The translations under genes and the position numbers were made by a program. The notes beneath the pieces were generated by a model that searched no databases, was not told the DNA's origin, and saw only the letters and a list, made by a program, of their open reading frames with translations. Of a stretch of 64,000 nucleotides of DNA, positions 8,366-63,814 are shown one piece after another (the stretch's first letter is position 1; each line of letters opens with the position of its first letter). The DNA is from a virus: the IMG/VR virus record IMGVR_UViG_3300037502_003029, positions 1,052-65,051 of that record; one strand, given 5' to 3'.

Positions 8366-8378
8366 TTGTTTTTAAAAT

Positions 8379-24338: not shown

Positions 24339-24343
24339 CCCTC

Positions 24344-24406
24344 AAACCCAGTCACGCTAAGGGAGCGTGGTAAGTAGTGCACCTCATGCGCTCACTGGGT
24401 TTTTTA
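24344..24406 (+). terminator. Rho-independent terminator (stem AACCCAGT/ACTGGGTT with nested CACGCT/AGCGTG hairpin, then T6)
   Basis: Seen in sequence. Confidence 0.55.
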
Positions 24407-24419
24407 CTTTTGTGCTTTT

Positions 24420-24436
24420 GTTTTTTTTTATTAACA
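24420..24436 (+). promoter_or_regulatory. T10-ATTAACA box, copy 3 of 4
   Basis: Repeated motif. Confidence 0.35.
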
Positions 24437-24605
24437 AACACTCTGTTTATCTATGCGGAAATATAATATATATTGTATATTTATTTTTGCAACTATATAT
24501 ATAATGCGTACGAATTGTATATATAGAATAGAGTAAAGGGTTATAATAATATCTACAACATGGTTGAGAGTTATAAGCCTCGTAAATCCCTTGTAGATAT
24601 TATTA

Positions 24606-24622
24606 TTTTTTTTTTATTAACA
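24606..24622 (+). promoter_or_regulatory. T10-ATTAACA box, copy 4 of 4 (preceded by 11-bp hairpin AATATCTACAA...TTGTAGATATT)
   Basis: Repeated motif. Confidence 0.35.
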
Positions 24623-25064
24623 CTCACTCTGACTATCTTAGGCGCATTGATTAAACATGGTGCGCTTATTCTTAGCATTTTCATGCTATGTTTTGGGTGT
24701 TATGGATAGATGCCCGATGTAATTTTGTAGATTACGCTGCATATGTGGTGTAATATTTGTTTGGTTTTATGATGTACGAAGGATTTCGTAGATGTTGTAA
24801 TAACCATCAATAGCAAAATTAGCACATCCATAACACCCATTCCTTACCCATAATAACGGGTAATTATATGTATTTTTGTTACGAATAACTACTAAAAGAC
24901 GCATTAAAACAAATCCTATTACATAGTGATTACATGTAATAGCACGTTTAATAATGAATGAAGTTTATAAATAATAAAAACATAGTAGTAGTCTAATCAA
25001 CAATATCTACAGTATGTTCTTCATTCTTTTTTATTTGCATTTTATAACCATCAAATCATAAACC

Positions 25065-25547
25065 ATGAAATCTTTAATTTTCTTTTTATTAGTAATATTG
25101 AGTTCTTGTTCAACATCAAAAAAGGATAAAGACTTAATAATAAGTTTCTATACAATTTCAGACATTTATTATGCCAATCCTAATTCACTTGAGATTACAA
25201 GCGAATCAGGACAAACATCAATAAAATGCACATCTTATAAAGAAATGTTGCAAAAAATTGATTCAATAAGTGCTGATAACACATCAATGAAACACCTAAA
25301 GTTTCATCTTGATTGGTTGATAGAAAGCGGTTATCTTACCGCTAACATCTATCCAACCATAGACACCACCTGTAAAGTTACTGATCCAATAGGTGAAGTA
25401 ATATTACAGTACTATGGTCCAGATTGGACTGTAGATGCAACAAACGATATAGAAATGCAATTAGGTACTTTTTATTTAAAAGATACCCTAAGTTTGCGTT
25501 GTTCGGATAAAATCCTAACCTGGTACAACATATCAGGTCAGGACTAA
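25065..25547 (+). CDS. Predicted lipoprotein
   Basis: Signal peptide plus lipobox LSSC. Confidence 0.45.
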   Translation: MKSLIFFLLVILSSCSTSKKDKDLIISFYTISDIYYANPNSLEITSESGQTSIKCTSYKEMLQKIDSISADNTSMKHLKFHLDWLIESGYLTANIYPTIDTTCKVTDPIGEVILQYYGPDWTVDATNDIEMQLGTFYLKDTLSLRCSDKILTWYNISGQD

Positions 25548-28155: not shown

Positions 28156-28316
28156 TCAAAATATGTCTAAAGAAAAAGAACCCATGTTAATTACATTAAC
28201 TGAGGCAATTAGAATATATGAAGAAGAAGAGAAAAAGAAAAAAAATAAAAAAAAAAAACTCAGCTAGGGAGAGTATAAAATTTTTTGCTGACGAGACCTA
28301 GACGAATAAAGACCGA

Positions 28317-28375
28317 AGACCTATAAGAAGAATCATAACCAAAGAGTATTATAGGTCTTTTTTTAATTAACTAAC
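28317..28375 (+). terminator. 10-bp perfect stem AGACCTATAA...TTATAGGTCT (32-nt loop) plus T7; terminator or small structured RNA
   Basis: Seen in sequence. Confidence 0.4.
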
Positions 28376-30054: not shown

Positions 30055-30355
30055 ATCAAAACGAAGTAACAGAAAGAATTGGTGTATATAGCACATCTGT
30101 TATTTTTTTACATGGGGGATAATAGGCAATCGACTAATAATAAAAAATATACAATCAGCAGTGAGAATGGTAGTAGTCTCACTATAATAACTTATACCAA
30201 ACATTAAATGGCAATTTATTTAACAAATTGACTGAAGGTGCTAAAGTAGTATCTTTGGTTTCAAGTTTTAAACCACAAGTAGCAGTTGCTGCTTGATCTT
30301 GAGCAAACAAAGGTTTTTTATAATTTCTCTATTTTAGTATTAATATAAATAGAGT

Positions 30356-30480
30356 GGTGGATGCTTAACCGTACTGGTTAGCCCTTTTTATTCTTGTAGG
30401 TAGTAAAAGAACCTTCATTAAGCTGTATAAATTGTATATCGTATATTATTAACACACGGGTTCGAGTCCCGTATCCTCCA
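30356..30480 (+). ncRNA. tRNA-like/Y-RNA-like element
   Basis: Canonical T-arm ACGGG-TTCGAGT-CCCGT at 30456-30472 and acceptor 3' strand ATCCTCC+A. The only complementary 5' strand is GGTGGAT, 111 nt upstream. An internal hairpin CTTTT...AAAAG is present. Confidence 0.35.
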
Positions 30481-30505
30481 CAAATAAGCAAATTATAGTT
30501 TTTAT

Positions 30506-31610: not shown

Positions 31611-32393
31611 ATGAAAAAATATTTTGTAATTTTATTATTTAGTTTTATCTTTGTGGCCTGTACTTCAGTAGATTCAGGACATAAAGGTGTAGAAGTATCA
31701 TGGGGTGGTAAGACCAACATGAACAAAATTTATGATGAAGGTCTGCATTCGGGATTGCACTGGATACTTGATGATATGATAGAATATGATGTAAGAGAAA
31801 GAACTCTAACCAAAAAATTTGAGTTTAACGATAAAAATAATATGAAAACTGGTGTAGAATTATCAGTTGATTATTCTTTACAAGCAAATGCTGTTAATAC
31901 TATTCATAGTAAAATAGGTAAAGACCAAATTGAAGTTAAAATTTTAACTACTATTAGTTCAGCAGCTAAACAAGTTATTCCTCAATATTCTGCAACAGAA
32001 CTCAATTTAAATAAACGAGAAGAAGCTGAAGATAAATTTTTGGAAATAGTAAAAAAAGAATTTCCAGATTTTTATGTAAATGCTTCAAGAGTTCGTATTA
32101 CTGATGTAGATATTCCTAATCAAATTGCTGAAGCTGCAGAAGCTAATGCTAAACAGCAAGAGCTTAATAAGTTATCTCAATCTAAAGTTGAACAAGCTAA
32201 AAATGAGTTTAATGCTGCTGAATATAATGCTAAAACAAAAGCTATTCTATCTAAACCAGAAATGCTTGAACTACAACGTGTAGAAAATGAGCGTTTAATG
32301 TGGGAAGGATTTAAAACCCATGGTAAATCACCATATGGTGAACATAACGTATTCGGAGGAAATCTTTTATTATCAAAACCTTTAAATAATTAA
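31611..32393 (+). CDS. SPFH/Band-7 (prohibitin/HflKC-like) lipoprotein
   Basis: Lipobox FVACTS; SGHKGVEVSWGG resembles the SPFH N-terminal motif; long C-terminal coiled coil. Confidence 0.4.
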   Translation: MKKYFVILLFSFIFVACTSVDSGHKGVEVSWGGKTNMNKIYDEGLHSGLHWILDDMIEYDVRERTLTKKFEFNDKNNMKTGVELSVDYSLQANAVNTIHSKIGKDQIEVKILTTISSAAKQVIPQYSATELNLNKREEAEDKFLEIVKKEFPDFYVNASRVRITDVDIPNQIAEAAEANAKQQELNKLSQSKVEQAKNEFNAAEYNAKTKAILSKPEMLELQRVENERLMWEGFKTHGKSPYGEHNVFGGNLLLSKPLNN

Positions 32394-48510: not shown

Positions 48511-49458
48511 ATGAAAAATAAAGTAATTTTAACAGCTCAACATGGAAGACCTAGTACTAAGTTAGTTTGGTCTAAAGTGCAACACAATCGTGAAAACCCT
48601 ATTGTATTAGTACAACGAAGAAGATTTACTAAAAGAAATGGTAAAGTTGTATCTTATTATAGAGTGTTTGGAGATCCAAATGTATATAATGAAAAACAAC
48701 TATATCAGTTAAAAATGAAAACATTTAATTTTAATAATACTGTATTAATTAGATGGGGAACTAGAGAAGAGATTGAAGGTGAAAACTTAATAGTTTATAA
48801 TCAATCTAAATCTATTAAAAATGCTACTGATAAAAAATTAAGTAGAGAAATATTTGAGCAAAACAACGTATCTACTCCGAGATTATTAAAAAGTGTTAAT
48901 GATTGGAATAATGTTTGGGTAATTGCTAGACCTTCAGTACATTCTAAAGGTAAAAACTTTGTAATATTAAAAACAAAAGATGAGTTAAGACAACATTGGA
49001 GACAAGGTTGGTATTATAGCGAATTTATTAATAAACAAAGAGAATTTAGAGTACATGTAGGTCATTCTAAGGTATTAGCATTAATGGAAAAACATAATCC
49101 TAATAATGGTAATATTGCTTGGAATAGAGCAATAAATCAAAATGATCCTTTTACTTGGGTAGGCCAACAGCAAAGCGATAACGAAAATTTAAAACCTGTA
49201 TTAATAGAAGCCATTAAAGCAGTAAATGCTTTAGGTTTAGATATGGGAGGAGTAGATGTAATGTTACGAGATGGAGTAGCTTATGTTTTAGAAGTAAATA
49301 CTGCACCTACATTAAATACTTCACCTAAAGTTGCTAATATGTGGGCTAAATATTGGGAATTTTTATTAAGAAGAGACGATAGAAGATTGCATTGGAATTA
49401 TAAACAATTTACTAAGGCTAGTAGTTTATTTTGGAAACAAAATCAACTTGAAGAATGA
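48511..49458 (+). CDS. ATP-grasp fold ligase (RimK/glutathione-synthetase-like)
   Basis: WVIARPSVHSKGKNFVIL, EFRVHVG and GLDMGGVDVMLRDGVAYVLEVNTAPTL are typical ATP-grasp motifs. Confidence 0.55.
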   Translation: MKNKVILTAQHGRPSTKLVWSKVQHNRENPIVLVQRRRFTKRNGKVVSYYRVFGDPNVYNEKQLYQLKMKTFNFNNTVLIRWGTREEIEGENLIVYNQSKSIKNATDKKLSREIFEQNNVSTPRLLKSVNDWNNVWVIARPSVHSKGKNFVILKTKDELRQHWRQGWYYSEFINKQREFRVHVGHSKVLALMEKHNPNNGNIAWNRAINQNDPFTWVGQQQSDNENLKPVLIEAIKAVNALGLDMGGVDVMLRDGVAYVLEVNTAPTLNTSPKVANMWAKYWEFLLRRDDRRLHWNYKQFTKASSLFWKQNQLEE

Positions 49459-49823
49459 ATTTAATTGCAACACCTTTTGATGAATATTGTTTTTATAAAG
49501 TAGATAGTAAAGTATTTGTAGCATGGACAGGCGCATTTGGTAATTGCCAAAATATTACAATTAGATTTTGTAATTACTTGTTAACAGAATCATCTACTTA
49601 TATAAATAATTATTTTTTTGAATTATATAATAAAACAGGTAGACCTTATGTAATAATTGACATAAATTATATCTACTTTAACAAATTAACTGAATTTATG
49701 AAAGAAAACTCATTGAGTAAATTAAAAATAGTTTCACACCAACCTTATAAAAATGGTAATGGTTCTAATATGAACCTGATAGTTTTAGATATTAAAAATT
49801 TAAGAAAAATAACAAATGAATAA
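49455..49823 (+). CDS. Hypothetical protein
   Basis: ORF track. Confidence 0.35.
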   Translation: MNLIATPFDEYCFYKVDSKVFVAWTGAFGNCQNITIRFCNYLLTESSTYINNYFFELYNKTGRPYVIIDINYIYFNKLTEFMKENSLSKLKIVSHQPYKNGNGSNMNLIVLDIKNLRKITNE

Positions 49824-50661
49824 TTTTATACTTGGAGCAGATCCTGAATTTTTTGCTCGAAACGTAAAAACAGGTGAATATATTAGTTTAGTACCTTTTT
49901 TAAAGGGTACTAAAAGTAAACCAGAAGTATTAAAAATACCATTAGTAGATGGTTGTTTTAAATTAAAAGATAATGTTGCTGTAGAATTTAATATGCCTCC
50001 AGTACCTGAATACTGGATGCTAAAGATTTTAATTGATCAATGCATACAAGAAACTAACGATTGGTTAAAATCTATAGATCCTGATTTAGAGTTGGCTATA
50101 ACATCATCTGCTGAATTTGATGATAGAGAATTAAGCTCTGAAGAAGCAATGGAGTTTGGATGTGAACCTGCATATTCTGTATATTCTGAAGATGTAGTTT
50201 ATAGACCTTCTCCAGTAGAAGTAGGTAATTTAAGAACATCCTCATATCATATTCATTATGGATGGGATAAGAATTATAGTAGAGAAGATTTATTTAAATT
50301 TATAGTTTTAAACGATGTATTTTTAGGTTTTCCAGCTATTTTTAAAGATGAAACTGATAAATTACGAAAAGTAGTATATGGTAGTTTATCTGAACATAGA
50401 ATTAAAGCTAAAGAGCATTATTTTCATATCGAAGCTGCTAATAGAATAGAATATCGAAGCTTAGGTGCAGGTATACATAATCATCCTGAATTTGTAAATA
50501 ATGGTATAAATTTAATTAGAAAAAATACTCAAAATATAGATGATATCTATGATAGATATTTTGATGATTTATATTTATTAAACTATGATTTATATAACGA
50601 TAAATTAAAAACTAATTTAAAAAATAAATTAATAAAAAATGGACATTGGAACAACGCGTAA
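49816..50661 (+). CDS. Putative carboxylate-amine ligase (amidoligase/GCS2-like)
   Basis: N-terminal GADPEFF (GxExE-like) and HIHYG motif; lies within the ligation cassette. Confidence 0.35.
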   Translation: MNNFILGADPEFFARNVKTGEYISLVPFLKGTKSKPEVLKIPLVDGCFKLKDNVAVEFNMPPVPEYWMLKILIDQCIQETNDWLKSIDPDLELAITSSAEFDDRELSSEEAMEFGCEPAYSVYSEDVVYRPSPVEVGNLRTSSYHIHYGWDKNYSREDLFKFIVLNDVFLGFPAIFKDETDKLRKVVYGSLSEHRIKAKEHYFHIEAANRIEYRSLGAGIHNHPEFVNNGINLIRKNTQNIDDIYDRYFDDLYLLNYDLYNDKLKTNLKNKLIKNGHWNNA

Positions 50662-51007
50662 GTTAGCTGTTTATGGTACACTAAGAAACGGTTTTGGTAA
50701 TCACCGGTATTTAAAAAATTCAAAATTTATAGGAACAGGGAAAACTGTAGAAAGTTTTACACTAAGTGCAAATGGTATTCCATTTGTACATAAAGATCCT
50801 TTACATAATGTAGTAGTAGAAGTATATGAAGTAGATGATAATGATTTTAAAAATATAGATTCATTAGAAGGTCATCCTAACTGGTATAAAAGAGAAATAA
50901 CTGATATCCAAATAGGAAATCAGATAATACCAGCATGGTTATATTTTTATCCTAAAAAAGCAAATGAAATAATAGAATCAGGTGATTATAAAGATTATAA
51001 ATTATGA
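50639..51007 (+). CDS. Gamma-glutamyl cyclotransferase (GGCT/AIG2-like)
   Basis: LAVYGTLRNGFGNH (YGTL motif) and LEGHPNWYKRE (E..Y.R). Confidence 0.55.
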   Translation: MDIGTTRKLAVYGTLRNGFGNHRYLKNSKFIGTGKTVESFTLSANGIPFVHKDPLHNVVVEVYEVDDNDFKNIDSLEGHPNWYKREITDIQIGNQIIPAWLYFYPKKANEIIESGDYKDYKL

Positions 51008-51774
51008 TAGTAAGTTCTCAAAACTATGCTAAAATAAAACAAAATAGTGATGTTCGTCTATACACAAAATACGACTGTAACGGTTGGTATAAAAATTCTA
51101 GACATAAAGGTGAAGATCCTAAATTTTATGTAGATAAATCAATTGCCGATCAAACTTTAAACTTTTGGAATATTTCTTTAGAAAGATTTTTAGAAGAATT
51201 ATCTTTAATAGGTTTTACTTTTAGTGTAACTGTTTATAATCGTAAATTAAAATGGAAAAATAATAATGAGATGACTCCGCATTATGAGTTTAAATTATTA
51301 GTACCTAAAAAATACAAAGAGTCATCCTATTATAGATATTTAGGTTTTTGTTTATTTCGTCATTTATATTATTATCAAAATTATTTTAAAATATATTTTG
51401 ATTATATAGATAACAATACAACTGAACATACTAAAATTCTTGTATTAGGTTTGTTAAGAGGTATACCAACGCATACTTATTTGCAAGCTACACCAACAAA
51501 AGTTACTACGTTTGCAGAATTATTAGAAAAATTATTAAAAAATGGTAGTAATTATAGTGTAGATGGTAGTGATGCTTCTTTGCGTTTTAATTTTCTAGCG
51601 ATGAATAGTGCGTTAGTTAATAAAAAAATACTTAACGATGTACTATCTATAATTCATTTATCAAGAAATGAGTTGCTTAAATTAAATAACGATTTATTTA
51701 AAGTATCAACACCTATTTATGGAAATATTAATCAATTAAATTACAAAAAAATCCAAAACGCTTTAAGATTTTAA
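51004..51774 (+). CDS. Hypothetical protein
   Basis: ORF track. Confidence 0.35.
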   Translation: MIVSSQNYAKIKQNSDVRLYTKYDCNGWYKNSRHKGEDPKFYVDKSIADQTLNFWNISLERFLEELSLIGFTFSVTVYNRKLKWKNNNEMTPHYEFKLLVPKKYKESSYYRYLGFCLFRHLYYYQNYFKIYFDYIDNNTTEHTKILVLGLLRGIPTHTYLQATPTKVTTFAELLEKLLKNGSNYSVDGSDASLRFNFLAMNSALVNKKILNDVLSIIHLSRNELLKLNNDLFKVSTPIYGNINQLNYKKIQNALRF

Positions 51775-51775
51775 C

Positions 51776-53251
51776 ATGTGCGGACTTGCTGGTTTTTATC
51801 CCAAAAAAGGAAAAATGGCAAATATAGATTTTATATTTGCAATGGGAATTATGAATGAAAATAGAGGTACTGATTCTTGTGGAATTAGTATAGGAGATTA
51901 TGTAGAAAAAGGTATAGCTAAAGAATCAGATGCTAGAACTTTTATTGAGATTAATAAAAAAAAAATCACAAATAGATTAACATCAGAACCTATAATATTT
52001 CATACAAGAAAAAGTACTTACGGTACTCATACTTATGATAATGCACACCCTTTTCATTGGTATATGCCAAATGATAAAAAGAATTATTTCGTATTTGCAC
52101 ATAATGGTACTTTAGACGCTTGGAGAAATATGATTGATAGTTGGAATATTCAAGGAGATTCAAAACTAGCAACTATAGATTCTCACGCCTTAGGTTTAGC
52201 AATGTTTAAAGCTATAAGAAACGGACAAGATTTTGATCGCATATTAACCAAATATAAAGGTGCTGCTGCATTTTTAGGTTATACTGGTGATACATTTTTT
52301 GTATGGAAAGGTGCTAGTAATAACATTGTAGAAAGACCGATGTATTATATAGAAAATGCTGATGGTTGGTATTTTCATTCTCAAGAAATAGTACTAAGTT
52401 TATTATTTCCTAATAAACATGTTTATGAAGTAGATAATAATACTCTAATAACGTTTAAAAATAATAAACTATTTAGCAAAACTGAATATAAAAGAGAATT
52501 TAAAACTATAGCAGAAACTGCTCATACAGCATCGCAAAACGTTAAAGAGTTATTTAAAAAGATTAATCCATTACATATGTTAATCTTAAATTCTAAAACG
52601 TTAATTAAAAGAAAAGCTAATAAATTCGATAAATATGAATCTAAAAAAAGTAGAAAACATAAAGCAAAATATCAAACAGATAGTCAAATGATGATACCAT
52701 TTGATGTTGATAATACTGAAGAAGAAGAAGATCTTTTATTAGATTTTAATTTTCCATATTCTTGTGGTGTAAATGCAAATATAAACTCTTATAATTATGC
52801 AAAATATACATCGTCTAAAGGAGCTATTTTAAATGGTACATACTATTTTAAACTTAGTAAAATAAATGATGATTTTATTATTGAAAATAAATATTCACAT
52901 AATCCACCTGATAATGGTTATATACCTATAATATTTATCAATGGAATTGCCTTCTATAATATAACAAATTCTTTAAAAATATCTGATACTATTTCGGTAC
53001 TTACTGAAAAAATTGAATCTTGTACAAACATTCAACAATTAAATGAATTAGTAGATAAAGAATATAGATCTAGTATATTTAAAAATTTAGCAAGTTATAT
53101 GCATGTATATAATGATATATTAGGTAAACATGTTGTCATATATAAATCAGTTAATGGCTTGGTTTATGCAGAAGTAACAGAAGATGTACCAACATTGATT
53201 ACTTTTTATGAAGAGGTTGTAGGAGTAAAAACATTTAAAGCGCTTGTATGA
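51776..53251 (+). CDS. Class-II glutamine amidotransferase (Ntn) domain protein
   Basis: N-terminus MCGLAG (catalytic Cys2), as in GlmS/AsnB-type GATases. Confidence 0.5.
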   Translation: MCGLAGFYPKKGKMANIDFIFAMGIMNENRGTDSCGISIGDYVEKGIAKESDARTFIEINKKKITNRLTSEPIIFHTRKSTYGTHTYDNAHPFHWYMPNDKKNYFVFAHNGTLDAWRNMIDSWNIQGDSKLATIDSHALGLAMFKAIRNGQDFDRILTKYKGAAAFLGYTGDTFFVWKGASNNIVERPMYYIENADGWYFHSQEIVLSLLFPNKHVYEVDNNTLITFKNNKLFSKTEYKREFKTIAETAHTASQNVKELFKKINPLHMLILNSKTLIKRKANKFDKYESKKSRKHKAKYQTDSQMMIPFDVDNTEEEEDLLLDFNFPYSCGVNANINSYNYAKYTSSKGAILNGTYYFKLSKINDDFIIENKYSHNPPDNGYIPIIFINGIAFYNITNSLKISDTISVLTEKIESCTNIQQLNELVDKEYRSSIFKNLASYMHVYNDILGKHVVIYKSVNGLVYAEVTEDVPTLITFYEEVVGVKTFKALV

Positions 53252-56337: not shown

Positions 56338-56749
56338 TGAATTATTACTTTTACATACGGATTATGTAAAGAATATTCGATCATATGCAATAAAGATACA
56401 GTTATCTAATACTAAAGACGTAGATATATTAACAGATAATTTTAACTCAATAACTGAAAAATTAACATTAAATATTTTAAAGTTTTGCAACATTTTAGAT
56501 TTAAGACCTGTAGAAGTTTTTAATCTTAAATCAAAAGATGAAAAAATGTATGATTATTTAATAATTAGTACTTTTATATTAAACTTAAAAGAAGATTTAA
56601 ACGTAGGAGAAAATAAAAAAACATTATTTACTAAAGTATTTAATAGTTTATTTAAGTTATTGCAAACTAATAACCCAAACCTAGATTTATATGATATTAT
56701 GCTTAAACAAATAGAAAATAAAAAATATTATGGATTTAAAAAAATATGA
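56291..56749 (+). CDS. Hypothetical protein (start uncertain, possibly 56306)
   Basis: ORF track. Confidence 0.3.
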   Translation: MNYIWMTKKLSNQEFNELLLLHTDYVKNIRSYAIKIQLSNTKDVDILTDNFNSITEKLTLNILKFCNILDLRPVEVFNLKSKDEKMYDYLIISTFILNLKEDLNVGENKKTLFTKVFNSLFKLLQTNNPNLDLYDIMLKQIENKKYYGFKKI

Positions 56750-57227
56750 AACAATAATAGCTCAAACAGCAGTATATCCTAGAACAGTAGAAAACTTTGA
56801 TGTTGCTTACTGTTATTTAGGAATAATAGATGAAACATTTGAATTATTTGAAAAAATAGAAAATAATGCTTCTGATATTGAAATAAAAAAAGAAATAGGT
56901 GACGTAATATGGTATCTTACAGCTTTTGCTGTATTTTATAAAATACCATTAGAAACCGTATTTATAACACTTTTAAACCCGGATTATGAAGAGGATATGT
57001 TTTTATTTTATCGTTTTGCAGGTAAAGTTAAAAAGTTTTATAGAGATAATAAAGAAATTCCTAAAGAAGAAGTATCTAGATTTATAACTATTGTTTGGAA
57101 TAGATTACTCCAATATACTTCTCAAGAAGATATTGGTAGCATTCTTCAAATGAATTACGATAAATTAATTAAAAGGAGAGAAACCGATACTTTACACGGA
57201 GATGGTGATAATCGAGAAATACAATAA
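56730..57227 (+). CDS. MazG-like nucleoside triphosphate pyrophosphohydrolase
   Basis: EIGDVIWYL (E.GD.LWYL) is typical of all-alpha NTP-PPases. Confidence 0.55.
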   Translation: MDLKKYETIIAQTAVYPRTVENFDVAYCYLGIIDETFELFEKIENNASDIEIKKEIGDVIWYLTAFAVFYKIPLETVFITLLNPDYEEDMFLFYRFAGKVKKFYRDNKEIPKEEVSRFITIVWNRLLQYTSQEDIGSILQMNYDKLIKRRETDTLHGDGDNREIQ

Positions 57228-57229
57228 TT

Positions 57230-58030
57230 ATGGAACATAAAGGATTAAGATATAATAAAGGTAAACTAAGATATGATTTAGTTCATCCTGATGCTCATCA
57301 AGAAATGGTTAAAGTATTAACTATGGGAGCAGAAAAATATGCAGAACGCAATTGGGAAAAAGGTATGAAGTGGAGTAATATAATTGCTTCACTTAAACGT
57401 CATATTGCAGCTATTGAGATGGGTGAAGATTATGATGCAGAATCTGGGTTATTGCATGCTGCTCATGTGGCGTGTAATGCTCATTTTCTTACTGCGTATT
57501 ATAAAATATACCCACAAGGTGATGATAGACCTCATTCATATTTAAACTCTTTAAAAATAGGATTAGACATAGATGGTGTACTTGCTGATTTTGACTTACA
57601 TTTATGTAATACTGTAGGTATAGATTTGCATAATATTACACATTGGAATGATCCTATTATTAAAAAACATTATGAAGCAATAAAACATGATGAAAACTTT
57701 TGGTTAACTATGCCTACGCTTATTAAACCAGAAGATATTCCTTTTGAACCTCACGTTTATATAACTAGTAGAAGTATAGATAGTAAGATAACAAAAAAAT
57801 GGTTACATGATAATGGATTTCCTGATGCTCCTGTGCATAGTATAGGTACTAATGAATCTAAGGTAGATACTGCTATAAAATCAAATATTGATATATTTAT
57901 AGATGATAAATGGCAGAATTTTATAGAATTAAATGCATCAGGTATATGTACATTTTTAATGGATGCTCCTCATAATAGAAAATATAACGTAGGTTATAAA
58001 AGAATTTTTAATTTTGATAATTTTAAATAA
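57230..58030 (+). CDS. Fusion: N-terminal dATP/dGTP-pyrophosphohydrolase-like domain + C-terminal HAD 5'(3')-deoxyribonucleotidase
   Basis: GAEKYAERNW...DAESGLLHAAHVACNAHFL N-domain; LDIDGVLADFD (DxDGVLxDF) HAD motif I and IFIDD C-terminal motif. Confidence 0.5.
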   Translation: MEHKGLRYNKGKLRYDLVHPDAHQEMVKVLTMGAEKYAERNWEKGMKWSNIIASLKRHIAAIEMGEDYDAESGLLHAAHVACNAHFLTAYYKIYPQGDDRPHSYLNSLKIGLDIDGVLADFDLHLCNTVGIDLHNITHWNDPIIKKHYEAIKHDENFWLTMPTLIKPEDIPFEPHVYITSRSIDSKITKKWLHDNGFPDAPVHSIGTNESKVDTAIKSNIDIFIDDKWQNFIELNASGICTFLMDAPHNRKYNVGYKRIFNFDNFK

Positions 58031-58033
58031 GAT

Positions 58034-59140
58034 ATGATTAAAGCAGAAGTAGTAGCTGATAGTTTATCACCACAAGGTGATAGACTTATTAGCTTATTGG
58101 TTACATTCCCTAGAATTATTCTTGCTGAAGTTAATACACATCGTATGCTTTCTAAGAATACATCTAGTAGTAGAGCTATACCATTTAATAAAATGGTAGA
58201 ATCTGTGCAAAATGATCCTTTTATACCTATTGCTTGGCAAAAAGAACATAAAGGAATGCAAGGTAGTGAGTATATTAATGATGAAAACGATATTTGGTTA
58301 GCAAAAGCCAATTGGTTAAGAGCAAGAGATTATGCTATTGATTATGCTAAACATAATAATGAGCAGGTTGGAGTAACCAAACAACTATGCAATAGACTTC
58401 TTGAACCTTTTATGTGGACTACTATGTTAATTACAGGTAGTAGAGAAGGTTGGGATAATTTTTTTAAATTAAGATGTCCTCAATATCATTTTCCAGTAGA
58501 TACACATTTTCGCTATAAAAGTAAAAAAGACTGTATTGCTGCTCATAGTAACCCTATTAATTTAGAAATATTTGAAAAGTTTTCAACAGTAGATTGGTTA
58601 AAAATTAATGAAGGTCAAGCCGAAATTCACATGATGGCTTTAGCTGAATCTATTTGGGATTCAGTTAATGAAAGTAAACCCAAACAATTACAAACTGGTG
58701 AATGGCATATACCTTTTGAGAATAAGATAAATTTACAAGATTGGTATAATAATAATAAAAGACCTACAGTAGCTTTTTGGAATGAGTTAGAAGGGTATGA
58801 AATGGATAAATATAAAGTTAAAGTATCTACAGCTATGGCTGCTCATACTTCTTATACAGTAGTAAGTAATGAAGCTGTTAAAGATTATTCTAGATGGGTA
58901 GAGTTACATGACAAATTAATAGCTTATGATCCACCTCATAGTAGTCCACTAGAACATTGCGCTAAGGTTATGGGTTATAATGAATATTATGATTATTTAA
59001 AAACTAATGGTGAAGTAATTGATTATACTCTTGATGGAGATAATATATATTCAGAGAGAAGTTTTGGTTGGTGTGGACCTTATAAAGGATTTATGTCTTA
59101 TAGATATTTTATTGATAATAAAATAAATGCTTTTAATTAA
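58034..59140 (+). CDS. thyX: Flavin-dependent thymidylate synthase (ThyX-like), unusually long at 368 aa
   Basis: ThyX signature NTHRMLSKNTSSSRA (RHR...S...S.R). Confidence 0.5.
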   Translation: MIKAEVVADSLSPQGDRLISLLVTFPRIILAEVNTHRMLSKNTSSSRAIPFNKMVESVQNDPFIPIAWQKEHKGMQGSEYINDENDIWLAKANWLRARDYAIDYAKHNNEQVGVTKQLCNRLLEPFMWTTMLITGSREGWDNFFKLRCPQYHFPVDTHFRYKSKKDCIAAHSNPINLEIFEKFSTVDWLKINEGQAEIHMMALAESIWDSVNESKPKQLQTGEWHIPFENKINLQDWYNNNKRPTVAFWNELEGYEMDKYKVKVSTAMAAHTSYTVVSNEAVKDYSRWVELHDKLIAYDPPHSSPLEHCAKVMGYNEYYDYLKTNGEVIDYTLDGDNIYSERSFGWCGPYKGFMSYRYFIDNKINAFN

Positions 59141-59146: not shown

Positions 59147-60205
59147 ATGAATCTTAATCAACTTAAAAAAAGTGGATGGATAATTCATGAATGCATAGTA
59201 GGTTCACATTTATATAACACTAACAAAGAAGGTAGTGATGTTGATGTAAAAGGTGTTTATATACAACCTACAAAAGAAATATTAAAAGGTAATTATATTG
59301 AACAAATAAGCGATGATAAACAAGATCATACTTATTATGAAATTGGTAGATTTATAGAGTTATTATGTAAAGCTAACCCTAATATGTTAGATATTATAGG
59401 AAGCGATCAGATACTTTATACTACAAATTTATGGAAACAATATTTTTCTAATCCTCAAGAATATATAACAAAAAAAATAAAACATACTTTTAATGGATAT
59501 GCACATAGTCAGATTCAAAAAGCTAAAGGTATGAATAAAAAAACTAATTGGGAAAAATCCAGAATGGAACGTAAAACACCATTAGATTTTTGTTATATAC
59601 TTTTAAATAATGAAAGTTCTATTAAAATTAAAGATTTTTTTGAAATACCAGAAAACGAATTTAATAAATTTAGACATTGGGGGTTAGCGTCTATAAATAA
59701 TTTTCCTGATTGTTATGCTATGTATTATTTTAAAGAAGGAAACGCAGGAATATGTAATAAAGAGTCTAATGATATTTGTTTAACATCTATACCTAAAAAC
59801 TATAATAGAAAGTATATATTACGTTTTGATCGGAATGCTTATTCTACTCATTGTAAAGATTATAGAGAATATCAAGAATGGTTAGAAAAACGTAATCCTC
59901 TTAGATATCAAGATAATGCTAAAGTAGATGATGAATATGATACAAAAAATATGATGCATTGTGTTAGATTATTGCTTACATGTAAAGATTTACTTTTAGG
60001 TAAAGGTTTACTATTAAAGCGACCTGAAAGAGATTTATTATTAAGTATTAGAAATGGTGAAGTTTCATATAATAGCATCATAGAGTTATCTGAATCATTA
60101 AAATTAGAAGTTGAAAGTTTATATGAAACTTCTAAATTACCAAGAGAAGTAAATATTAATATGGTTAAAGAGTTATTATTAAAAATCAGATTAAATCATT
60201 TATGA
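59147..60205 (+). CDS. Pol-beta superfamily nucleotidyltransferase domain protein
   Basis: VGSHLYNTNKEGSDVDVKGV matches hG[GS]x(9-13)DxD. Confidence 0.45.
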   Translation: MNLNQLKKSGWIIHECIVGSHLYNTNKEGSDVDVKGVYIQPTKEILKGNYIEQISDDKQDHTYYEIGRFIELLCKANPNMLDIIGSDQILYTTNLWKQYFSNPQEYITKKIKHTFNGYAHSQIQKAKGMNKKTNWEKSRMERKTPLDFCYILLNNESSIKIKDFFEIPENEFNKFRHWGLASINNFPDCYAMYYFKEGNAGICNKESNDICLTSIPKNYNRKYILRFDRNAYSTHCKDYREYQEWLEKRNPLRYQDNAKVDDEYDTKNMMHCVRLLLTCKDLLLGKGLLLKRPERDLLLSIRNGEVSYNSIIELSESLKLEVESLYETSKLPREVNINMVKELLLKIRLNHL

Positions 60206-61509
60206 ATTTACAAATAGCGAAAGATAGCGAAAATTATGCAGGAATAGTTTGTAAAGTATCTAATATAATTCCTATAGAAGGTGCTGATAAAATACAACTT
60301 GCAATAGTAGAAGGTAATAGTGTAGTAGTTAGTAAATCTACTAAAGTAGGAGATTTAGGTCTTTTCTTTTGTTCTGGAACGCAGTTATCTGAAGATTATT
60401 GTAAACTTAACAATTTATATGATGATCCTAATAAAAATTTAGATACTTCTGAAAAAGGTTATATATCTTCAAGACAAAGAAGAGTAAAAGCTATAAAACT
60501 CAGAGGAGTTATATCTAATGGTATGTTTATGCCTATTCATTCTTTGGATTATATATCTGAAGATGTATTTAATTTAAAAGAAGGTCAGTCATTTACCTCT
60601 ATAAATGGGTTAGAAGTATGTAGAAAGTTTATAGTTGTAGAACAAAAAGGTCCTGCTAATACACTAGCAAAACCTAAAAGTCCTAAGTTTAATAGATTAA
60701 TTGATAACCAATTTATTCTTCATAATAATACATCTAATTTAAGACATAATATTAAAAATATCGAACCAGAGGATATTATAGGAATTCATTACAAAAAGCA
60801 TGGTACAAGTGCTGTTTTTGCTAATATTCCTACGTTACGAAAATTAAGTTGGTGGGAAAGATTTTTAATGAAAATAGGTATTAAAATTAACACAACTGTA
60901 TATGATATAATATACTCTTCTAGAACTGTAATTAAAAATAAAAATATTAATTTAGAAAGCGGAGAAGGGTATTATGGAGAAGATATATGGAAAGTTGTTA
61001 AAAATGAGATATCTCATTTAATACCTAAAAATTGGACTTTATATGGTGAGATTATAGGATTTATGCCTTCAGGTCAATCTATACAAAAAAAGTATGATTA
61101 TGGTTGCAAATTAGGAGAACATAAATTTTATGTATATAAAATATCAGTAAATAATCCTGACGGTAAAGTAATTTATCTAACAGATTTACAAATAAAAGAA
61201 TTTTGTGATTCTGTTGGTTTATTATATTCTGATACTTTTATGTACTATGGTAAAGCTAAAGATCTATTTCCTATTCGTAAAAATGGTAATATAAAAACTT
61301 GGAGACAAAACTTTTTAGAGTTTTTAGAAAAAACTTATAACGATAAAGATTGTTATATGTGTATTAATAAAGTACCAGAAGAAGGAATAGTGTTGCGTAA
61401 AGAGTCTTTATTTAGTTATGAAGCTTATAAATTAAAAAGTAAAGGGTTTATATTACAAGAATCTAAACAACAAGAAGATAATGAGTACAACATCGAAGAT
61501 GAAGCTTAG
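60202..61509 (+). CDS. ATP-dependent RNA ligase (Rnl2/Rnl5-like nucleotidyltransferase domain preceded by an N-terminal domain)
   Basis: Motif I KKHGTS (KxHGT[NS]) at about aa 199; Rnl-like downstream motifs. Confidence 0.5.
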   Translation: MNLQIAKDSENYAGIVCKVSNIIPIEGADKIQLAIVEGNSVVVSKSTKVGDLGLFFCSGTQLSEDYCKLNNLYDDPNKNLDTSEKGYISSRQRRVKAIKLRGVISNGMFMPIHSLDYISEDVFNLKEGQSFTSINGLEVCRKFIVVEQKGPANTLAKPKSPKFNRLIDNQFILHNNTSNLRHNIKNIEPEDIIGIHYKKHGTSAVFANIPTLRKLSWWERFLMKIGIKINTTVYDIIYSSRTVIKNKNINLESGEGYYGEDIWKVVKNEISHLIPKNWTLYGEIIGFMPSGQSIQKKYDYGCKLGEHKFYVYKISVNNPDGKVIYLTDLQIKEFCDSVGLLYSDTFMYYGKAKDLFPIRKNGNIKTWRQNFLEFLEKTYNDKDCYMCINKVPEEGIVLRKESLFSYEAYKLKSKGFILQESKQQEDNEYNIEDEA

Positions 61510-61906
61510 AGTAGAATTTGCAGTTAATAAATATCAAATATTATGCAATAATACATATACTGGAGCTTTTTTTGTTAAAACAACTAATTGTAAAATAAAT
61601 ATTTTTCAAAATTTTAATTCTCTCATGTATTATATTAGGAAAGAAATTCCTGATATTACTAAGGAAGAGTTTAAAAAACTTTTTATAACCGTTTTAAAAG
61701 AATGTGATATAACAGTATTATTTGATATAACTAATGATGAGTTTGTTCCATACTTATTAGAAAATTTTGAATATTATTATGCAATGCAAATTCCAATAGG
61801 TTATGGAAAAAATCCTACAACAATGATATGTTTAAAAAATCAGCATAGTAGTAATAATAATTATCATAAATATTTATTAGACAAATCATTAGTAAATAAC
61901 TTATAG
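61481..61906 (+). CDS. Hypothetical protein
   Basis: ORF track. Confidence 0.35.
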   Translation: MSTTSKMKLRVEFAVNKYQILCNNTYTGAFFVKTTNCKINIFQNFNSLMYYIRKEIPDITKEEFKKLFITVLKECDITVLFDITNDEFVPYLLENFEYYYAMQIPIGYGKNPTTMICLKNQHSSNNNYHKYLLDKSLVNNL

Positions 61907-61930
61907 GAGGGGTTTTCCCTCCATTTTTTT
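61906..61930 (+). terminator. Terminator (GGAGGG-TTTT-CCCTCC then T7)
   Basis: Seen in sequence. Confidence 0.5.
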
Positions 61931-61941
61931 AATTTAAAAAC

Positions 61942-62460
61942 ATGAAACATATTATTATATGTGTAGGTATATCAGGAAGTGGTAAATCTACATGGAGTGA
62001 AAATTTTATGGCATTAAATCCTTCATTTTTAAGGATAAATAGAGATGATATACGAAGAGTATTAGTTAAAAATCTAGTAGGATATTACAATAGTAAGAGA
62101 GTAAGTTATGTAGAACCTATAGTTAATACTATTGAATATGATATGTTTTTAAGATTATCGGCTAAAGAAGCTGATATTATAATTGATAATACAAATCTTA
62201 CTAGAGATTATATTAAAAACTGGATAAAAATATCTGAATTTAATAATTACGACATTAAGTTTAAATTATTTGATTCTAAAGTAAAAGATGCTAAATGTAG
62301 AGTTTTAAACAGAGATTATAAAGAACTTGTTGAAGATTTAGATAGTCCTATGAGTATTAGACCTACTTTAGAAAACTTAGAATATATAGATAATCAATAT
62401 AATCAATATAAAGAAATTTCAAAATGGATTTTAGAAAACTTTAAAGATAAAGTTATATGA
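61942..62460 (+). CDS. Polynucleotide 5'-kinase (T4 Pnk kinase-domain-like P-loop kinase)
   Basis: MKHIIICVGISGSGKSTWSENF closely resembles the T4 Pnkp N-terminal P-loop. Confidence 0.55.
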   Translation: MKHIIICVGISGSGKSTWSENFMALNPSFLRINRDDIRRVLVKNLVGYYNSKRVSYVEPIVNTIEYDMFLRLSAKEADIIIDNTNLTRDYIKNWIKISEFNNYDIKFKLFDSKVKDAKCRVLNRDYKELVEDLDSPMSIRPTLENLEYIDNQYNQYKEISKWILENFKDKVI

Positions 62461-63164
62461 TTAAAAAAATTTGGTTAATTAGTGATACACATTGTAACCA
62501 CAAGCAGTTGCGTGTTCCAGAAGTTGATTTAGTTATTCACGCAGGTGATAGTACTAATAGTAAAGGTTTTATGAATTATGACCAAGCTAGCGATTTTTTT
62601 GAATGGTATCACAATTTACCAATAAAAGATAAATTATTAATCGCTGGAAATCATGATTATTCTTTATATAATAAAGTATTTAATCTTGTTCAATATTCTT
62701 TTAAATATTTAGAACAAGATATTTATAAATATTATAAAAATCAGATTTATGGAACACCATATACTCCTGAATTTAGTGATTGGTATTTTATGTTATCTAA
62801 AGAGAAAGAAGAAGCTCATGCTAAAAATATTCCACCATGTGATATTCTTATTACTCATGGTCCTCCTAAATTTATTTTAGATAGTGTTTATAGAGAAAAT
62901 ATATTTTACGAACATTGTGGTGATTTAAGCTTATATCATAGAGTTATTAAAATAAAACCAAAATTACATGTTTTTGGTCATATCCATTCTTCACATAATA
63001 ATAAATATCCTGAAAATAATGGAGTATTTTTTAACGGAGATACATGGTTCGTAAATGCAAGTTGCTGTGTAGATGGTAATATGACTAATATATATACTCA
63101 TGGTTTTATTTGTGAATATGATATAGAAACTAAAGAAGTACTTAAAATTTATAGAAATAAATGA
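62457..63164 (+). CDS. Calcineurin-like metallophosphoesterase (candidate RNA 2',3'-phosphatase)
   Basis: ISDTHCNH, AGDSTN, IAGNHDY, ITHGPP and HVFGHIH are MPE motifs. Confidence 0.55.
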   Translation: MIKKIWLISDTHCNHKQLRVPEVDLVIHAGDSTNSKGFMNYDQASDFFEWYHNLPIKDKLLIAGNHDYSLYNKVFNLVQYSFKYLEQDIYKYYKNQIYGTPYTPEFSDWYFMLSKEKEEAHAKNIPPCDILITHGPPKFILDSVYRENIFYEHCGDLSLYHRVIKIKPKLHVFGHIHSSHNNKYPENNGVFFNGDTWFVNASCCVDGNMTNIYTHGFICEYDIETKEVLKIYRNK

Positions 63165-63346: not shown

Positions 63347-63814
63347 ATGAAAACAAAAATATATATTCTAACACCTAAATCTCCACCTTTAAAACTTGAA
63401 GGTAAATCTAAATCAATATTTTTAGCAGGTACTATAGATAATGGAGATAGTGAAGATTGGCAGTCTAAGTTTATAGATAAAATATTAGAAAAAGAACATG
63501 CTAGATCAGAACAACTAGTAATATTTAATCCAAGAAGAAATAATTGGAATAATAATGCTACAGAACAAGAACAACATGCTCAAATAGATTGGGAATTTAA
63601 AGCTTTACACAAAGCAGATTATATAATAATGAATTTATTACCAGATAGTAAATCCCCAATAAGTCTTTTAGAACTAGGATTATTTGCTGATAAAAAAAAG
63701 TTAATAATTATATGTCCTAAAGAATTTTATAGATATTATAATGTATATTATATAGCTAAAGCATATAACCTTCCAATATTTGAATCTATTGAGCAAGTAT
63801 ATGAATTTATATAA
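63347..63814 (+). CDS. Nucleoside 2-deoxyribosyltransferase-like protein
   Basis: SIFLAGTIDNGDSEDW and LLELGLFADKKK resemble NDT family motifs. Confidence 0.35.
   Translation: MKTKIYILTPKSPPLKLEGKSKSIFLAGTIDNGDSEDWQSKFIDKILEKEHARSEQLVIFNPRRNNWNNNATEQEQHAQIDWEFKALHKADYIIMNLLPDSKSPISLLELGLFADKKKLIIICPKEFYRYYNVYYIAKAYNLPIFESIEQVYEFI

Follow-up and report, generated by a model that had tools for sequence, protein, structure and literature searches.

Between positions 59147 and 63164 of the 64,000-nucleotide stretch analysed here (the window), five closely packed, co-directional open reading frames lie on the + strand of a crAss-like phage, whose host we infer to be a member of the Bacteroidota (Table 1). 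Four of them encode the enzymes named in a preliminary description of this DNA, namely a nucleotidyltransferase (RlaP), an RNA ligase, a polynucleotide kinase and a metallophosphoesterase (MPE235), at the positions, on the strand and with the motifs given there. The contiguous block envisaged in that description stands as regards the close packing of the four enzymes, but a fifth gene between the ligase and the kinase, ORF141, had been overlooked. Adjacent genes overlap by 4 nt (RlaP/ligase), 29 nt (ligase/ORF141) and 4 nt (kinase/MPE235), with a further 4-nt overlap at the MPE235/ORF58 junction, while ORF141 and the kinase are 35 nt apart. Such packing is fit for co-expression. The ORF141/kinase gap holds a terminator-like site, GGAGGGG-TTT-TCCCTCC then ATTTTTTT, with a folding energy of -11.7 kcal/mol (z -1.9). 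This GC-rich hairpin is not conserved in the two 94%-identical relatives (L018 and L019); it could conceivably be an intrinsic terminator or attenuator, and two transcription units may result from it. The identical cassette also occurs in Logan SRR12611921, a separate and independent public assembly, and nucleotide-metabolism genes surround it (MazG, dATP/dGTP diphosphohydrolase, ThyX-like and deoxyribosyltransferase-like).

Table 1. Features of the cassette and allied genes of the phage (positions in the window).
Feature	Position	Strand	Size	Description
RlaP	59147-60205	+	352 aa	Pol-beta nucleotidyltransferase
RNA ligase	60202-61509	+	435 aa	Rnl5 architecture, ATP-dependent
ORF141	61481-61906	+		Small protein between ligase and kinase genes
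Hairpin + T7 run	61906-61922	+		Sole true intergenic gap of the cassette
Polynucleotide kinase	61942-62460	+	172 aa	T4-Pnk-type kinase domain
MPE235	62457-63164	+	235 aa	Binuclear metallophosphoesterase, MPPED2 / class III phosphodiesterase type
Ro60/TROVE-fold protein	28390-30054	+	554 aa	With vWA domain; allied context, outside the operon
tmRNA	30114-30483	+		Divergent; full-length match to Rfam RF00023; allied context

The first gene product matches Pfam PF10127 (E 2e-19, 70.7 bits against a cutoff of 23) and, over its full length, phrog_388 (E 2e-52). Its motif reads G19-S...D31-V-D33, and G19, S20 and the catalytic D31, D33 and D60 are invariant across seven RlaPs with identity down to 22%, the T4-type NrdC.11 included. 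Both profiles and the intact catalytic Asp residues thus bear out its initial recognition as a Pol-beta nucleotidyltransferase. Relatives were found in 1,289 phage records, those of cultured phages being only 22-35% identical to the cassette protein. Characterised RlaPs add 1-2 NMP onto RNA 3'-OH ends, favour a broken-tRNA mimic and do not use DNA, and their product suits 5'-phosphate ligases (PMC12776372); the cassette RlaP is predicted to add 1-2 NMP to RNA 3'-OH in the same manner. A ligase of the cassette type was found near RlaP at none of seven other RlaP loci sampled.

The ligase is matched by the profiles PHA02142-OB (E 6e-10), RNA_ligase (E 3e-7) and phrog_968 (E 3e-59), and its motif K198-K-H-G-T, with K198 as the predicted nucleophile, agrees with the KxHGT RNA ligase first proposed. 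An N-terminal OB domain, which resembles tRNA-binding EMAP/Trbp111 modules, precedes a C-terminal NTase domain. Compared with the Rnl5 enzymes of Deinococcus (DraRnl) and Naegleria (NgrRnl), it falls far under the TIGR02306 cutoff (36 bits against 151, the match being confined to the OB domain), has a motif I of KxHG as in Rnl2, where NgrRnl has KxDG, and is ~95 residues longer, with two low-confidence insertions (residues 147-173 and 248-259), belonging to a phage 'PHA02142'/phrog_968 branch. The family is found in 499 phage records, and roughly 1% of phage records have the ligase anywhere in the genome; many members are annotated 'RNA ligase', and cultured-phage examples show 32-37% identity. 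Rnl5 enzymes join 3'-OH(RNA)/5'-PO4 nicks (PMC7261155); their physiological substrates have been called 'uncharted', and the radiation-resistance phenotype of DraRnl suggests DNA repair (PMC5397189).

The kinase is a kinase domain alone, with no fused phosphatase. Among solved structures it is closest to the kinase domain of T4 Pnk (E 4e-12), followed by Pnkp1 (E 3e-8); the profiles that match it are AAA_33 (E 3e-14) and phrog_505, 'polynucleotide kinase' (E 7e-26). The P-loop GISGSGKS spans residues 9-16; K15, S16 and the acceptor-binding D35 and R38 are conserved, and R124 is aligned with T4 R126. Profile and fold searches gave no match to dNMP-kinase families, and with the T4 relationship and the retained D35 and R38 this sustains the Pnk-like P-loop kinase of the preliminary description. 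That description had set in advance, as refuting it, an assignment to DNA ligase, capping-enzyme or dNMP-kinase families; when looked for, none was found.

A reading that we hold to be of low probability is that the cassette does not serve tRNA but repairs nicks in duplex nucleic acid, either the phage genome or intermediates of its replication. In this case, nicks with 5'-OH and 3'-phosphate ends would be cleaned by the kinase and the phosphoesterase, and those whose 3' side ends in ribonucleotides, for example in RNA-primed or ribonucleotide-patched DNA, would be closed by the Rnl5-type ligase. DNA ends are also substrates of T4 Pnk, and the cassette has replication as well as nucleotide-metabolism genes around it. 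For Rnl5 enzymes the nick must lie in a duplex and its 3'-OH strand must be RNA, but the 5'-PO4 strand and the template may be DNA; Deinococcus without DraRnl is sensitive to ionising radiation, and whether Rnl2/Rnl5 serve DNA repair, RNA repair or both was left open by the authors (PMC5397189; PMC7261155). However, the substrate range of the characterised RlaPs, inactive on DNA (PMC12776372), speaks for RNA, as do the tRNA-binding likeness of the OB domain, the presence of Thg1, a tRNA 5'-end repair polymerase, beside the ligase of relatives, and the tRNAs, tmRNA and Ro60-like protein all encoded by the phage.

MPE235 is closest to MPPED2 among solved structures (E 2e-23) and matches Metallophos (E 3e-9). 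It carries the motifs D10xH, G30D, G64NHD and G174HIH, and D10, H12, D31, N65, H66, H134, H175 and H177 are invariant in 37 homologues. Its description as a calcineurin-type phosphoesterase is correct at the superfamily level, but not its ascription to the Clostridium Pnkp type, since MPPED2 is nearest, the Arg with which the monoesterase activity of CthPnkp and lambda-Pase is linked is absent (residue comparison; PMC2190708) and the solved Pnkp1 chain 4xrp_A gave no match, though the kinase does match Pnkp1. CthPnkp heals 2',3'-cyclic ends by its binuclear metallophosphoesterase (PMC2190708). MPPED-type enzymes hydrolyse diesters and show no monoesterase activity, a fly member preferring 2',3'-cAMP (PMC10547211). 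MPE235 is predicted to be a 2',3'-cyclic phosphodiesterase; with no monoesterase activity in its type and the Arg missing, removal of a 3'-phosphate is unaccounted for inside the cassette.

ORF141 has no match in Pfam, PHROG or NCBIfam. In L018 and L019 the corresponding slot holds a counterpart of 65-67% identity, and among 1.84 billion proteins only 12 cluster representatives are related at E <=1e-3; by this sequence distribution, ORF141 is a lineage-specific gene. In more distant relatives its slot is taken by a metallophosphoesterase (L001) or an HNH-like ORF (L002).

The order ThyX-RlaP-ligase-ORF141-kinase is retained in L018 and L019, and the exact gene set was found again only in these 94%-identical relatives. 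Nevertheless, ligase and kinase recur together elsewhere, sometimes with a phosphoesterase: of 13 viral loci anchored on the ligase, 10 have a kinase homologue <=3.5 kb from it, L001 has the order Thg1-ligase-MPE206-kinase, and an independent, unrelated locus (L072) holds a contiguous MPE235-MPE206-kinase-ligase. In Stenotrophomonas phage Jojan60 the ligase adjoins an annotated polynucleotide kinase as the next gene, with MazG and ThyX nearby; that gene, however, has a bifunctional-Pnkp size (~310 aa), and neither RlaP nor a separate metallophosphoesterase is present. Mycobacterium phage Omega shares the ligase family, but no annotated healing partner lies near its ligase. The separate kinase and phosphatase with an added nucleotidyltransferase had been called a less common arrangement; the exact set is indeed rare in our sample, yet this composition is a documented 'syntax' (PMC7824862; PMC12776372).

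The distribution of MPE235 bears on a narrower and somewhat improbable scenario, in which RlaP, ligase and kinase form the repair unit, 3'-end healing is left to MPE206 or a host enzyme, and the MPPED2-like MPE235 does something else. It might break down the cyclic nucleotides or oligonucleotides that signal in immunity (CBASS, type III CRISPR, Thoeris-like), or free 2',3'-cNMP, or it might act in nucleotide metabolism. The solved protein nearest to it is a cyclic-nucleotide phosphodiesterase, the MPPED enzymes lack monoesterase activity, and phage phosphodiesterases against cyclic-phosphate signals have been discussed (PMC7824862). Within 8 kb of MPE235 relatives at 80 viral loci we found the ligase in four cases, the kinase in two and RlaP in none. 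In L021, a partial set with RlaP 5 kb from MPE235, an anti-Gabija Gad1 homologue is ~0.6 kb from the MPE235 homologue; in L022 that homologue is alone; and it is MPE206, not MPE235, that adjoins the ligase in L001 and sits 2 kb from RlaP in L016. Yet 4/80 is well above the ~1% of phage records with the ligase anywhere, MPE235 overlaps the kinase gene in the present phage, and in L020, another partial set, it lies directly 3' of a ligase-derived OB-only gene with a 4-nt overlap. The contiguous L072 locus also speaks against this scenario, and a cyclic phosphodiesterase acting on RNA ends would need to prefer 2',3'-cyclic phosphate in exactly this way.

We propose, with a probability of about 0.6, that the whole cassette is a phage RNA end-healing, nucleotide-restoring and sealing pathway by which translation RNAs, most likely tRNAs, are kept working when a host ribonuclease, or one from a competing element, cuts them. 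All profile and fold tests agree with the core of the preliminary description, a healing-and-sealing cassette of nucleotidyltransferase, RNA ligase, kinase and metallophosphoesterase, and the profile matches greatly exceed what chance would give. The enzymes would share one substrate, a ribotoxin-cleaved tRNA, and act in order. A metal-independent ribotoxin would leave 2',3'-cyclic phosphate and 5'-OH ends, sometimes with a nucleotide removed as well. MPE235 would open the cyclic phosphate; for the leftover monophosphate a second phosphoesterase is probably needed, and a candidate is the 206-aa MPE206, ~2.2 kb downstream and just beyond the window end. The kinase would phosphorylate the 5'-OH, and the ligase, adenylylated at K198, would transfer AMP onto the 5'-phosphate and seal the break, presumably best where a duplex-like context holds the ends together. 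Damage by anticodon nucleases is a plausible candidate target.

The same enzyme set has been described in jumbo phages (PMC7824862), and the RNA-repair 'syntax' was already set out by Burroughs and Aravind (2016) and by Iyer et al. (2021), RlaP having since been characterised biochemically. With RlaP-associated systems the cassette shares a PF10127 nucleotidyltransferase with three catalytic Asp directly beside an RNA ligase gene and the general combination of ligase, nucleotidyltransferase and kinase/phosphatase (Burroughs and Aravind 2016; PMC12776372, PMC7824862). However, the characterised PfRlaP and PaRlaP are encoded in RtcB-RlaP-RtcA operons (PMC12776372, PMC7824862), whereas in this crAss-like phage the place of RtcB is taken by an ATP-dependent OB-NTase ligase for 5'-phosphate ends, so that the 3'-OH product of RlaP would be directly compatible with it. 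The T4 Pnkp+Rnl type invoked at the outset applies in part. The kinase and the T4 Pnk kinase domain are homologous, and K15, S16, D35 and R38 occupy the same positions in both; by its sequence motifs (KxHGT) the NTase domain of the ligase is nearest T4 Rnl2, RlaP is homologous to NrdC.11, and the heal-then-seal logic is shared. In contrast, the ligase has a nick-sealing Rnl5 architecture, in which an OB domain at the N terminus stands in for the C-terminal domains of Rnl1 and Rnl2, and is not of the T4 Rnl1 tRNA-repair type; a separate binuclear metallophosphoesterase replaces the kinase-fused HAD (DxDxT) phosphatase; and the cassette is contiguous, while nrdC.11 in a T4-like genome is flanked by mobD.1 and nrdC.10, not pnk/rnl. 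Clostridium thermocellum Pnkp/Hen1 and Capnocytophaga Pnkp1-Rnl-Hen1 likewise bring together a P-loop 5'-kinase and an ATP-dependent ligase with a binuclear metallophosphoesterase that heals 3' ends. Here, though, the domains are separate proteins, the phosphoesterase is of MPPED2/class III type without the lambda-Pase-type Arg, Hen1 methyltransferase is absent, the ligase is not Rnl4, and RlaP is added.

Allied genes lie elsewhere in the phage, the Ro60-fold gene being 29 kb from the cassette. The tmRNA scores 23.4 bits (E 6e-7), below the RF00023 gathering score of 47; its acceptor stem has G3.U70, a T-arm is present, and the candidate tag is GNLFNKLTEGAKVVSLVSSFKPQVAVAA* (tag frame 30210-30296). 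Relatives have tmRNAs at the same position that are above threshold and called by ARAGORN as well. An SPFH protein and a candidate hammerhead ribozyme are also present. A Y-RNA-like array had been suggested too; searches of the window detected no Y RNA, though a Ro60-fold protein is encoded.

Hammerhead cleavage leaves 2',3'-cyclic-phosphate and 5'-OH ends. A further, very unlikely, possibility is that the cassette heals and joins ends from the phage's own self-cleaving ribozymes or tmRNA/tRNA processing. It would then serve to mature or circularise phage RNAs by programmed cutting and joining, and not to counter toxins of the host. The hammerhead (RAGATH-1) match is full-length (49 bits, E 1.4e-6), 46 nt upstream of the Ro60-like gene, with tmRNA and tRNA genes clustered beside it. 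However, it is under the Rfam gathering score of 56.3, was not found in two relatives and is 29 kb away from the cassette; nor is there evidence of permuted or split RNA genes, the tmRNA being in one piece and all three tRNA genes intact. Under the proposed tRNA-repair pathway, the three tRNA genes, the tmRNA and the Ro60-fold protein would fit an investment of this phage in protecting translation.

All four enzymes of the RNA-repair cassette announced in the preliminary description are present, and the interval 59147-63164 holds five co-directional open reading frames on the plus strand instead of four (table). The genes are tightly packed. RlaP and ligase, kinase and MPE235, and MPE235 and the next gene overlap by 4 nt of start and stop codon, and the sole true gap in the cassette is one of 35 nt between ORF141 and the kinase. 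The same DNA occurs in an independent public assembly (Logan SRR12611921, a 43.6-kb contig), which reaches 7.5 kb past the window end. No family in four libraries matches ORF141, which is conserved in the closest relatives only and has just 12 distant representatives among 1.84 billion proteins. A hairpin at 61906-61922 was considered as a terminator and rejected, being absent from the 94%-identical relatives and having a z of only -1.9; it stays as a weak feature alone.

Features of the cassette and of the translation-RNA region in the window
Feature	Position	Strand	Length or evidence
Candidate hammerhead ribozyme	28257-28344	+	RAGATH-1 full-length match, 46 nt upstream of Ro-like gene
tmRNA	30114-30483	+	directly after Ro-like gene; Rfam full-length match, sub-threshold, 23.4 bits, E 6e-7
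SPFH/Band-7 protein	31611-32393	+	Pfam E 9e-22
RlaP	59147-60205	+	352 aa
Ligase	60202-61509	+	435 aa
ORF141	61481-61906	+	141 aa
Kinase	61942-62460	+	172 aa
MPE235 phosphoesterase	62457-63164	+	235 aa

The window, which is AT-rich (GC about 25%), belongs to a tailed phage; its genes for the major head protein, the portal and the large terminase are found at 6.8-14.5 kb, on the minus strand. Because the terminase is nearest to those of Cellulophaga phage phi14:2 (34.5%), the Flavobacterium FpV4 phages and Bacteroides crAss-like phages, the source is assigned on sequence grounds to the crAss-like phages, probably with a Bacteroidota host. A nucleotide search of GenBank phages returned just two short matches of about 70% identity; the phage thus has no close cultured relative and no close DNA-level relative in that set. 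The cassette is set in a block of nucleotide-metabolism genes (window 56730-59140 and 63347-63814, continuing downstream on L017, a locus that extends beyond the window). These encode MazG, a long ThyX-like protein (phrog_85, E 2e-51), a protein resembling nucleoside 2-deoxyribosyltransferases, and a fusion of a dATP/dGTP diphosphohydrolase N-domain with a HAD/NT5C-like domain; further downstream on L017 are a GIY-YIG endonuclease and an intein-containing class II ribonucleotide reductase. This block may point to modified DNA bases. A separate cluster at 48511-53251 (+) may encode a pathway for a small molecule or for base modification; its genes resemble ATP-grasp (faintly), GGACT (gamma-glutamyl cyclotransferase-like) and GATase_4 families.

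The product of ORF 60202-61509 is an ATP-dependent RNA ligase. It matches phrog_968 "RNA ligase" (E 3e-59) and shows the Rnl5 layout, in which an N-terminal OB domain (Pfam PHA02142 OB) is fused to a C-terminal nucleotidyltransferase domain (Pfam RNA_ligase). Motifs I (K198-x-H200-G201), III (E283), IV (E394-G395) and V (K410-x-K412) are invariant in sets of 39 and 50 homologues. Fold ranking ruled out both a DNA ligase and a capping enzyme, which upholds the original reading as an RNA ligase. Motif I nevertheless departs from that of the Rnl5 enzyme NgrRnl: there it is KxDG, with an Asp (D172) that touches the catalytic metal (PMC7261155), whereas the cassette ligase carries K198-K-H200-G201-T, the KxHG of the Rnl2 type. 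Since it scores 36 bits against the 151-bit cutoff of NCBIfam TIGR02306 (the DRB0094 equivalog), with the OB region alone aligning, the ligase is best classified as a divergent phage branch with Rnl5 architecture and not as a DraRnl equivalog. The gene is not intact everywhere. In L014, another of the compared viral loci, the coding sequence is split into 8066-8605 and 10001-10771, about 1.4 kb apart, which suggests an insertion; L020 retains just the OB domain (6411-7004), as a 197-aa gene overlapping an MPE235 homologue.

Rnl5 enzymes seal 3'-OH(RNA)/5'-PO4 nicks via a lysyl-AMP intermediate (PMC7261155). In an alternative scenario, the module would mend nicked DNA duplexes or RNA-DNA hybrids. 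This would fit both the open question on Rnl5 physiology (PMC5397189) and the nucleotide-metabolism genes around the cassette, and we consider it quite improbable.

The kinase identification likewise holds, as a polynucleotide kinase and not a dNMP kinase: the protein matches the kinase domain of T4 Pnk (E 4e-12 to both 1ly1 and 1ltq) and, at E 3e-8, Pnkp1, and no dNMP-kinase family matches it. Of the residues that bind acceptor and ATP, K15, S16, D35 and R38 are numbered identically to T4, and R124 aligns with T4 R126. The likeness to the bifunctional T4 Pnkp ends with the P-loop kinase domain. With 172 aa, an alignment that stops near T4 residue 122 and no DxDxT motif, the cassette kinase lacks the fused C-terminal HAD 3'-phosphatase. 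The HAD-like C-terminal half of the upstream ORF 57230-58030 was considered as this missing 3'-phosphatase; it matches phrog_415 "polynucleotide kinase" (E 4e-5), while Pfam NT5C falls below threshold and no PDB sequence matches, and it is more likely a nucleotidase.

RlaP is a Pol-beta nucleotidyltransferase that scores 70.7 bits with Pfam PF10127 (E 2e-19), above the curated threshold of 23, and matches phrog_388 over its full length (E 2e-52). Its Pol-beta signature (G19, S20, D31, D33, D60) is invariant when it is aligned with six further RlaPs of as little as 22% identity, among them a T4-type NrdC.11. The three Asp residues D31, D33 and D60 form the same catalytic set as the three strictly conserved in PfRlaP (PMC12776372). 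Its family is represented in 1,289 phage records, the majority from T4-like phages. The adjacency of RlaP to the ligase gene is kept in L018 and L019, the 94%-identical relatives, and no OB-NTase ligase lies within 1-10 kb of RlaP at seven other loci (L016, L021, PTm1, ABPH49, PP01, LR745206 and Lak-C1). Biochemically, RlaP extends an RNA 3'-OH, but not DNA, by one or two NMPs, a property known for PfRlaP and PaRlaP only; it favours the 5' half of a broken-tRNA mimic, and tRNA missing a nucleotide partly regains aminoacylation (PMC12776372). The same study notes that the 3'-OH product fits 5'-phosphate ligases and flags the pairing of RlaP with RtcB as problematic (PMC12776372). In the cassette RlaP is paired with a 5'-phosphate ligase, a chemically compatible partner.

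For the phosphoesterase, the original assignment needs revision. MPE235 is indeed a binuclear metallophosphoesterase, with a complete metal-ligand set (DxH, GD, GNHD, H, GHxH) in which 37 homologues share D10, H12, D31, N65, H66, H134, H175 and H177 without exception, but the Clostridium Pnkp type originally proposed is the wrong clade. The nearest solved relative is the cyclic-nucleotide phosphodiesterase MPPED2 (E 2e-23), which places MPE235 with the MPPED / class III metallophosphodiesterases, no PDB match to Pnkp1 (4xrp_A) appears at an E of 1 or better, and motif II reads GDSTNSKG, without the Arg of the GDxxDR expected for a lambda-Pase-like CthPnkp domain. The arrangement differs as well: in the CthPnkp/Hen1 system the phosphoesterase is fused to the kinase (and ligase), whereas here they are separate ORFs, and no methyltransferase domain that could represent the Hen1 2'-O-methyltransferase partner was found among the scanned neighbours (56.7-63.8 kb and 7.5 kb downstream). 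In CthPnkp and lambda-Pase, monoesterase activity goes together with the Arg that MPE235 lacks (PMC2190708), and dMpped and rMPPED1/2 are reported to be diesterases that prefer 2',3'-cNMP and have no detectable monoesterase activity, the fly enzyme favouring 2',3'-cAMP (PMC10547211). We infer from the missing Arg that MPE235 would be a diesterase devoid of monoesterase activity. Given also the diesterase character of MPPED-type enzymes, one healing step, removal of the 3'-monophosphate, would not be covered by it.

A second metallophosphoesterase, MPE206 (206 aa; best PDB match aq_1665, E 1e-4), lies just outside the window, about 2.2 kb downstream (L017 15172-15792, about 65.4-66.0 kb in window coordinates). 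Its homologues are found beside the ligase in L001, beside MPE235 in L072, L082 and L092, and 2 kb from RlaP in L016. The positions in L001 and L016 make it a candidate for the missing step: MPE206 may supply what MPE235 lacks, or may itself be the true healing enzyme.

The distribution of these genes across phages provides additional clues. The order ThyX-RlaP-ligase-ORF141-kinase is preserved in both 94%-identical relatives. Of 13 IMG/VR loci chosen for a distant relative of the ligase (29-38% identity), 10 have a homologous kinase no more than 3.5 kb away; many of these contigs share one study, which makes them non-independent. In Stenotrophomonas phage Jojan60 an annotated polynucleotide kinase adjoins the ligase, with MazG and ThyX close by. 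Other combinations exist: L001 has the order Thg1-ligase-MPE206-kinase, and in L072, from an unrelated lineage, MPE235, MPE206, kinase and ligase are adjacent. L021 carries RlaP and MPE235 homologues 5 kb apart, with a homologue of the anti-Gabija protein Gad1 (PF25705) between them at 5389-6384, which suggests an anti-defence island. The repair genes are thus a modular, shuffled system, in agreement with the literature's account of RNA-repair loci. Within 8 kb of MPE235 relatives at 80 viral loci, ligase was found at 4, kinase at 2 and RlaP at none. MPE235 might then play an unrelated role, in degradation of an immune signal or in nucleotide metabolism, leaving RlaP, ligase and kinase as the only repair unit, a reading that we regard as unlikely.

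The best-supported model remains one of healing, restoring and sealing in four steps. The metallophosphoesterase, or both of them, would open the cyclic phosphate and clear the 3' end; the kinase would phosphorylate the 5' end; RlaP would restore a nucleotide, as an optional step; and the ligase would seal the break. The enzymes themselves are identified here; we infer the cooperation, the order of the steps and the substrate.

Elsewhere in the window there are several genes related to translation RNAs. The Ro-like gene (28390-30054, +) encodes a protein in which the TROVE ring and the vWA fold are both present, and tRNA-Leu and tRNA-Gln lie in the same region. The divergent tmRNA that follows was not called by ARAGORN. 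Its acceptor stem carries G3.U70, its T-arm is canonical, and its tag frame (30210-30296) reads GNLFNKLTEGAKVVSLVSSFKPQVAVAA* and ends VAVAA. Two relatives, L111 and L112, carry above-threshold tmRNAs (72 and 59 bits; tags ending LVAA and ALVA) at the same place after the Ro-like gene. The candidate hammerhead scores 49 bits (E 1.4e-6), short of the gathering score of 56.3, and was not found in the two relatives scanned; if real, it would produce 2',3'-cyclic-phosphate and 5'-OH ends. That the module processes the phage's own RNAs seems to us most improbable. The SPFH/Band-7 domain type was reportedly proposed as a scaffold of RNA-repair systems by Burroughs and Aravind in 2016.

The preliminary description had also suggested that the cassette could service a Y-RNA-like array, which probably corresponds to a nearly ORF-free, higher-GC stretch of about 2 kb between divergent gene blocks (23107-25065). 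This contains four copies of TTTTTTTTATTAACA, starting at 23811, 24005, 24421 and 24607, each followed by a short GC-richer unit, one of which contains a small ORF (about 24076-24338). No Rfam model matches the stretch, which may be a set of promoters with short transcripts, and the window gave no match to Y_RNA or YrlA, whether thresholds were set at gathering or at permissive level. In L112 a sub-threshold match to YrlA (bacterial Y RNA-like; 36 bits, E 8e-5, full model length) lies at 5270-5377, about 570 nt after the Ro-like gene.

The tmRNA, tRNAs, Ro-like protein, hammerhead and SPFH protein fit a phage that invests heavily in protecting or managing translation RNAs, which does not imply that the cassette acts on them. 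A broader proposal would make the cassette one arm of an integrated phage RNA surveillance and repair system together with the Ro60-fold protein, tmRNA, tRNAs, SPFH protein and hammerhead; the 3'-end work would be split, with 2',3'-cyclic phosphates opened by MPE235 and the monophosphate removed by MPE206, after which RlaP and the Rnl2/Rnl5-hybrid ligase would rebuild and seal both toxin-cut host tRNAs and the phage's own ribozyme-cleaved or processed RNAs. To this whole we give little credence, judging it very improbable.

The RlaP family takes its name from exactly this association with RNA ligases. In a survey of jumbo phages, ATP-dependent RNA ligases are accompanied by polynucleotide kinases, phosphoesterases (calcineurin-like in a minority) and RlaP, the latter being "the most prevalent" accessory nucleotidyltransferase, with a distribution that mirrors that of the ligases (PMC7824862). 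The cassette therefore belongs to an already known kind, and its particularities are modest: the ligase combines Rnl5 architecture with a motif I of the Rnl2 type, the Pnk is a kinase alone, the esterase is of the MPPED2 type and the background is a crAss-like phage. The existing view of such systems is unchanged and the gain incremental. The cassette is also a compact group of four enzymes that suits in vitro reconstitution, and in which an MPPED-type diesterase might heal RNA ends by itself or together with a second esterase. Because phages use RNA-repair modules against abortive-infection ribonucleases, infection success is partly set by such modules, and the system of RlaP, ligase, kinase and phosphoesterase now extends to a crAss-like phage lineage.
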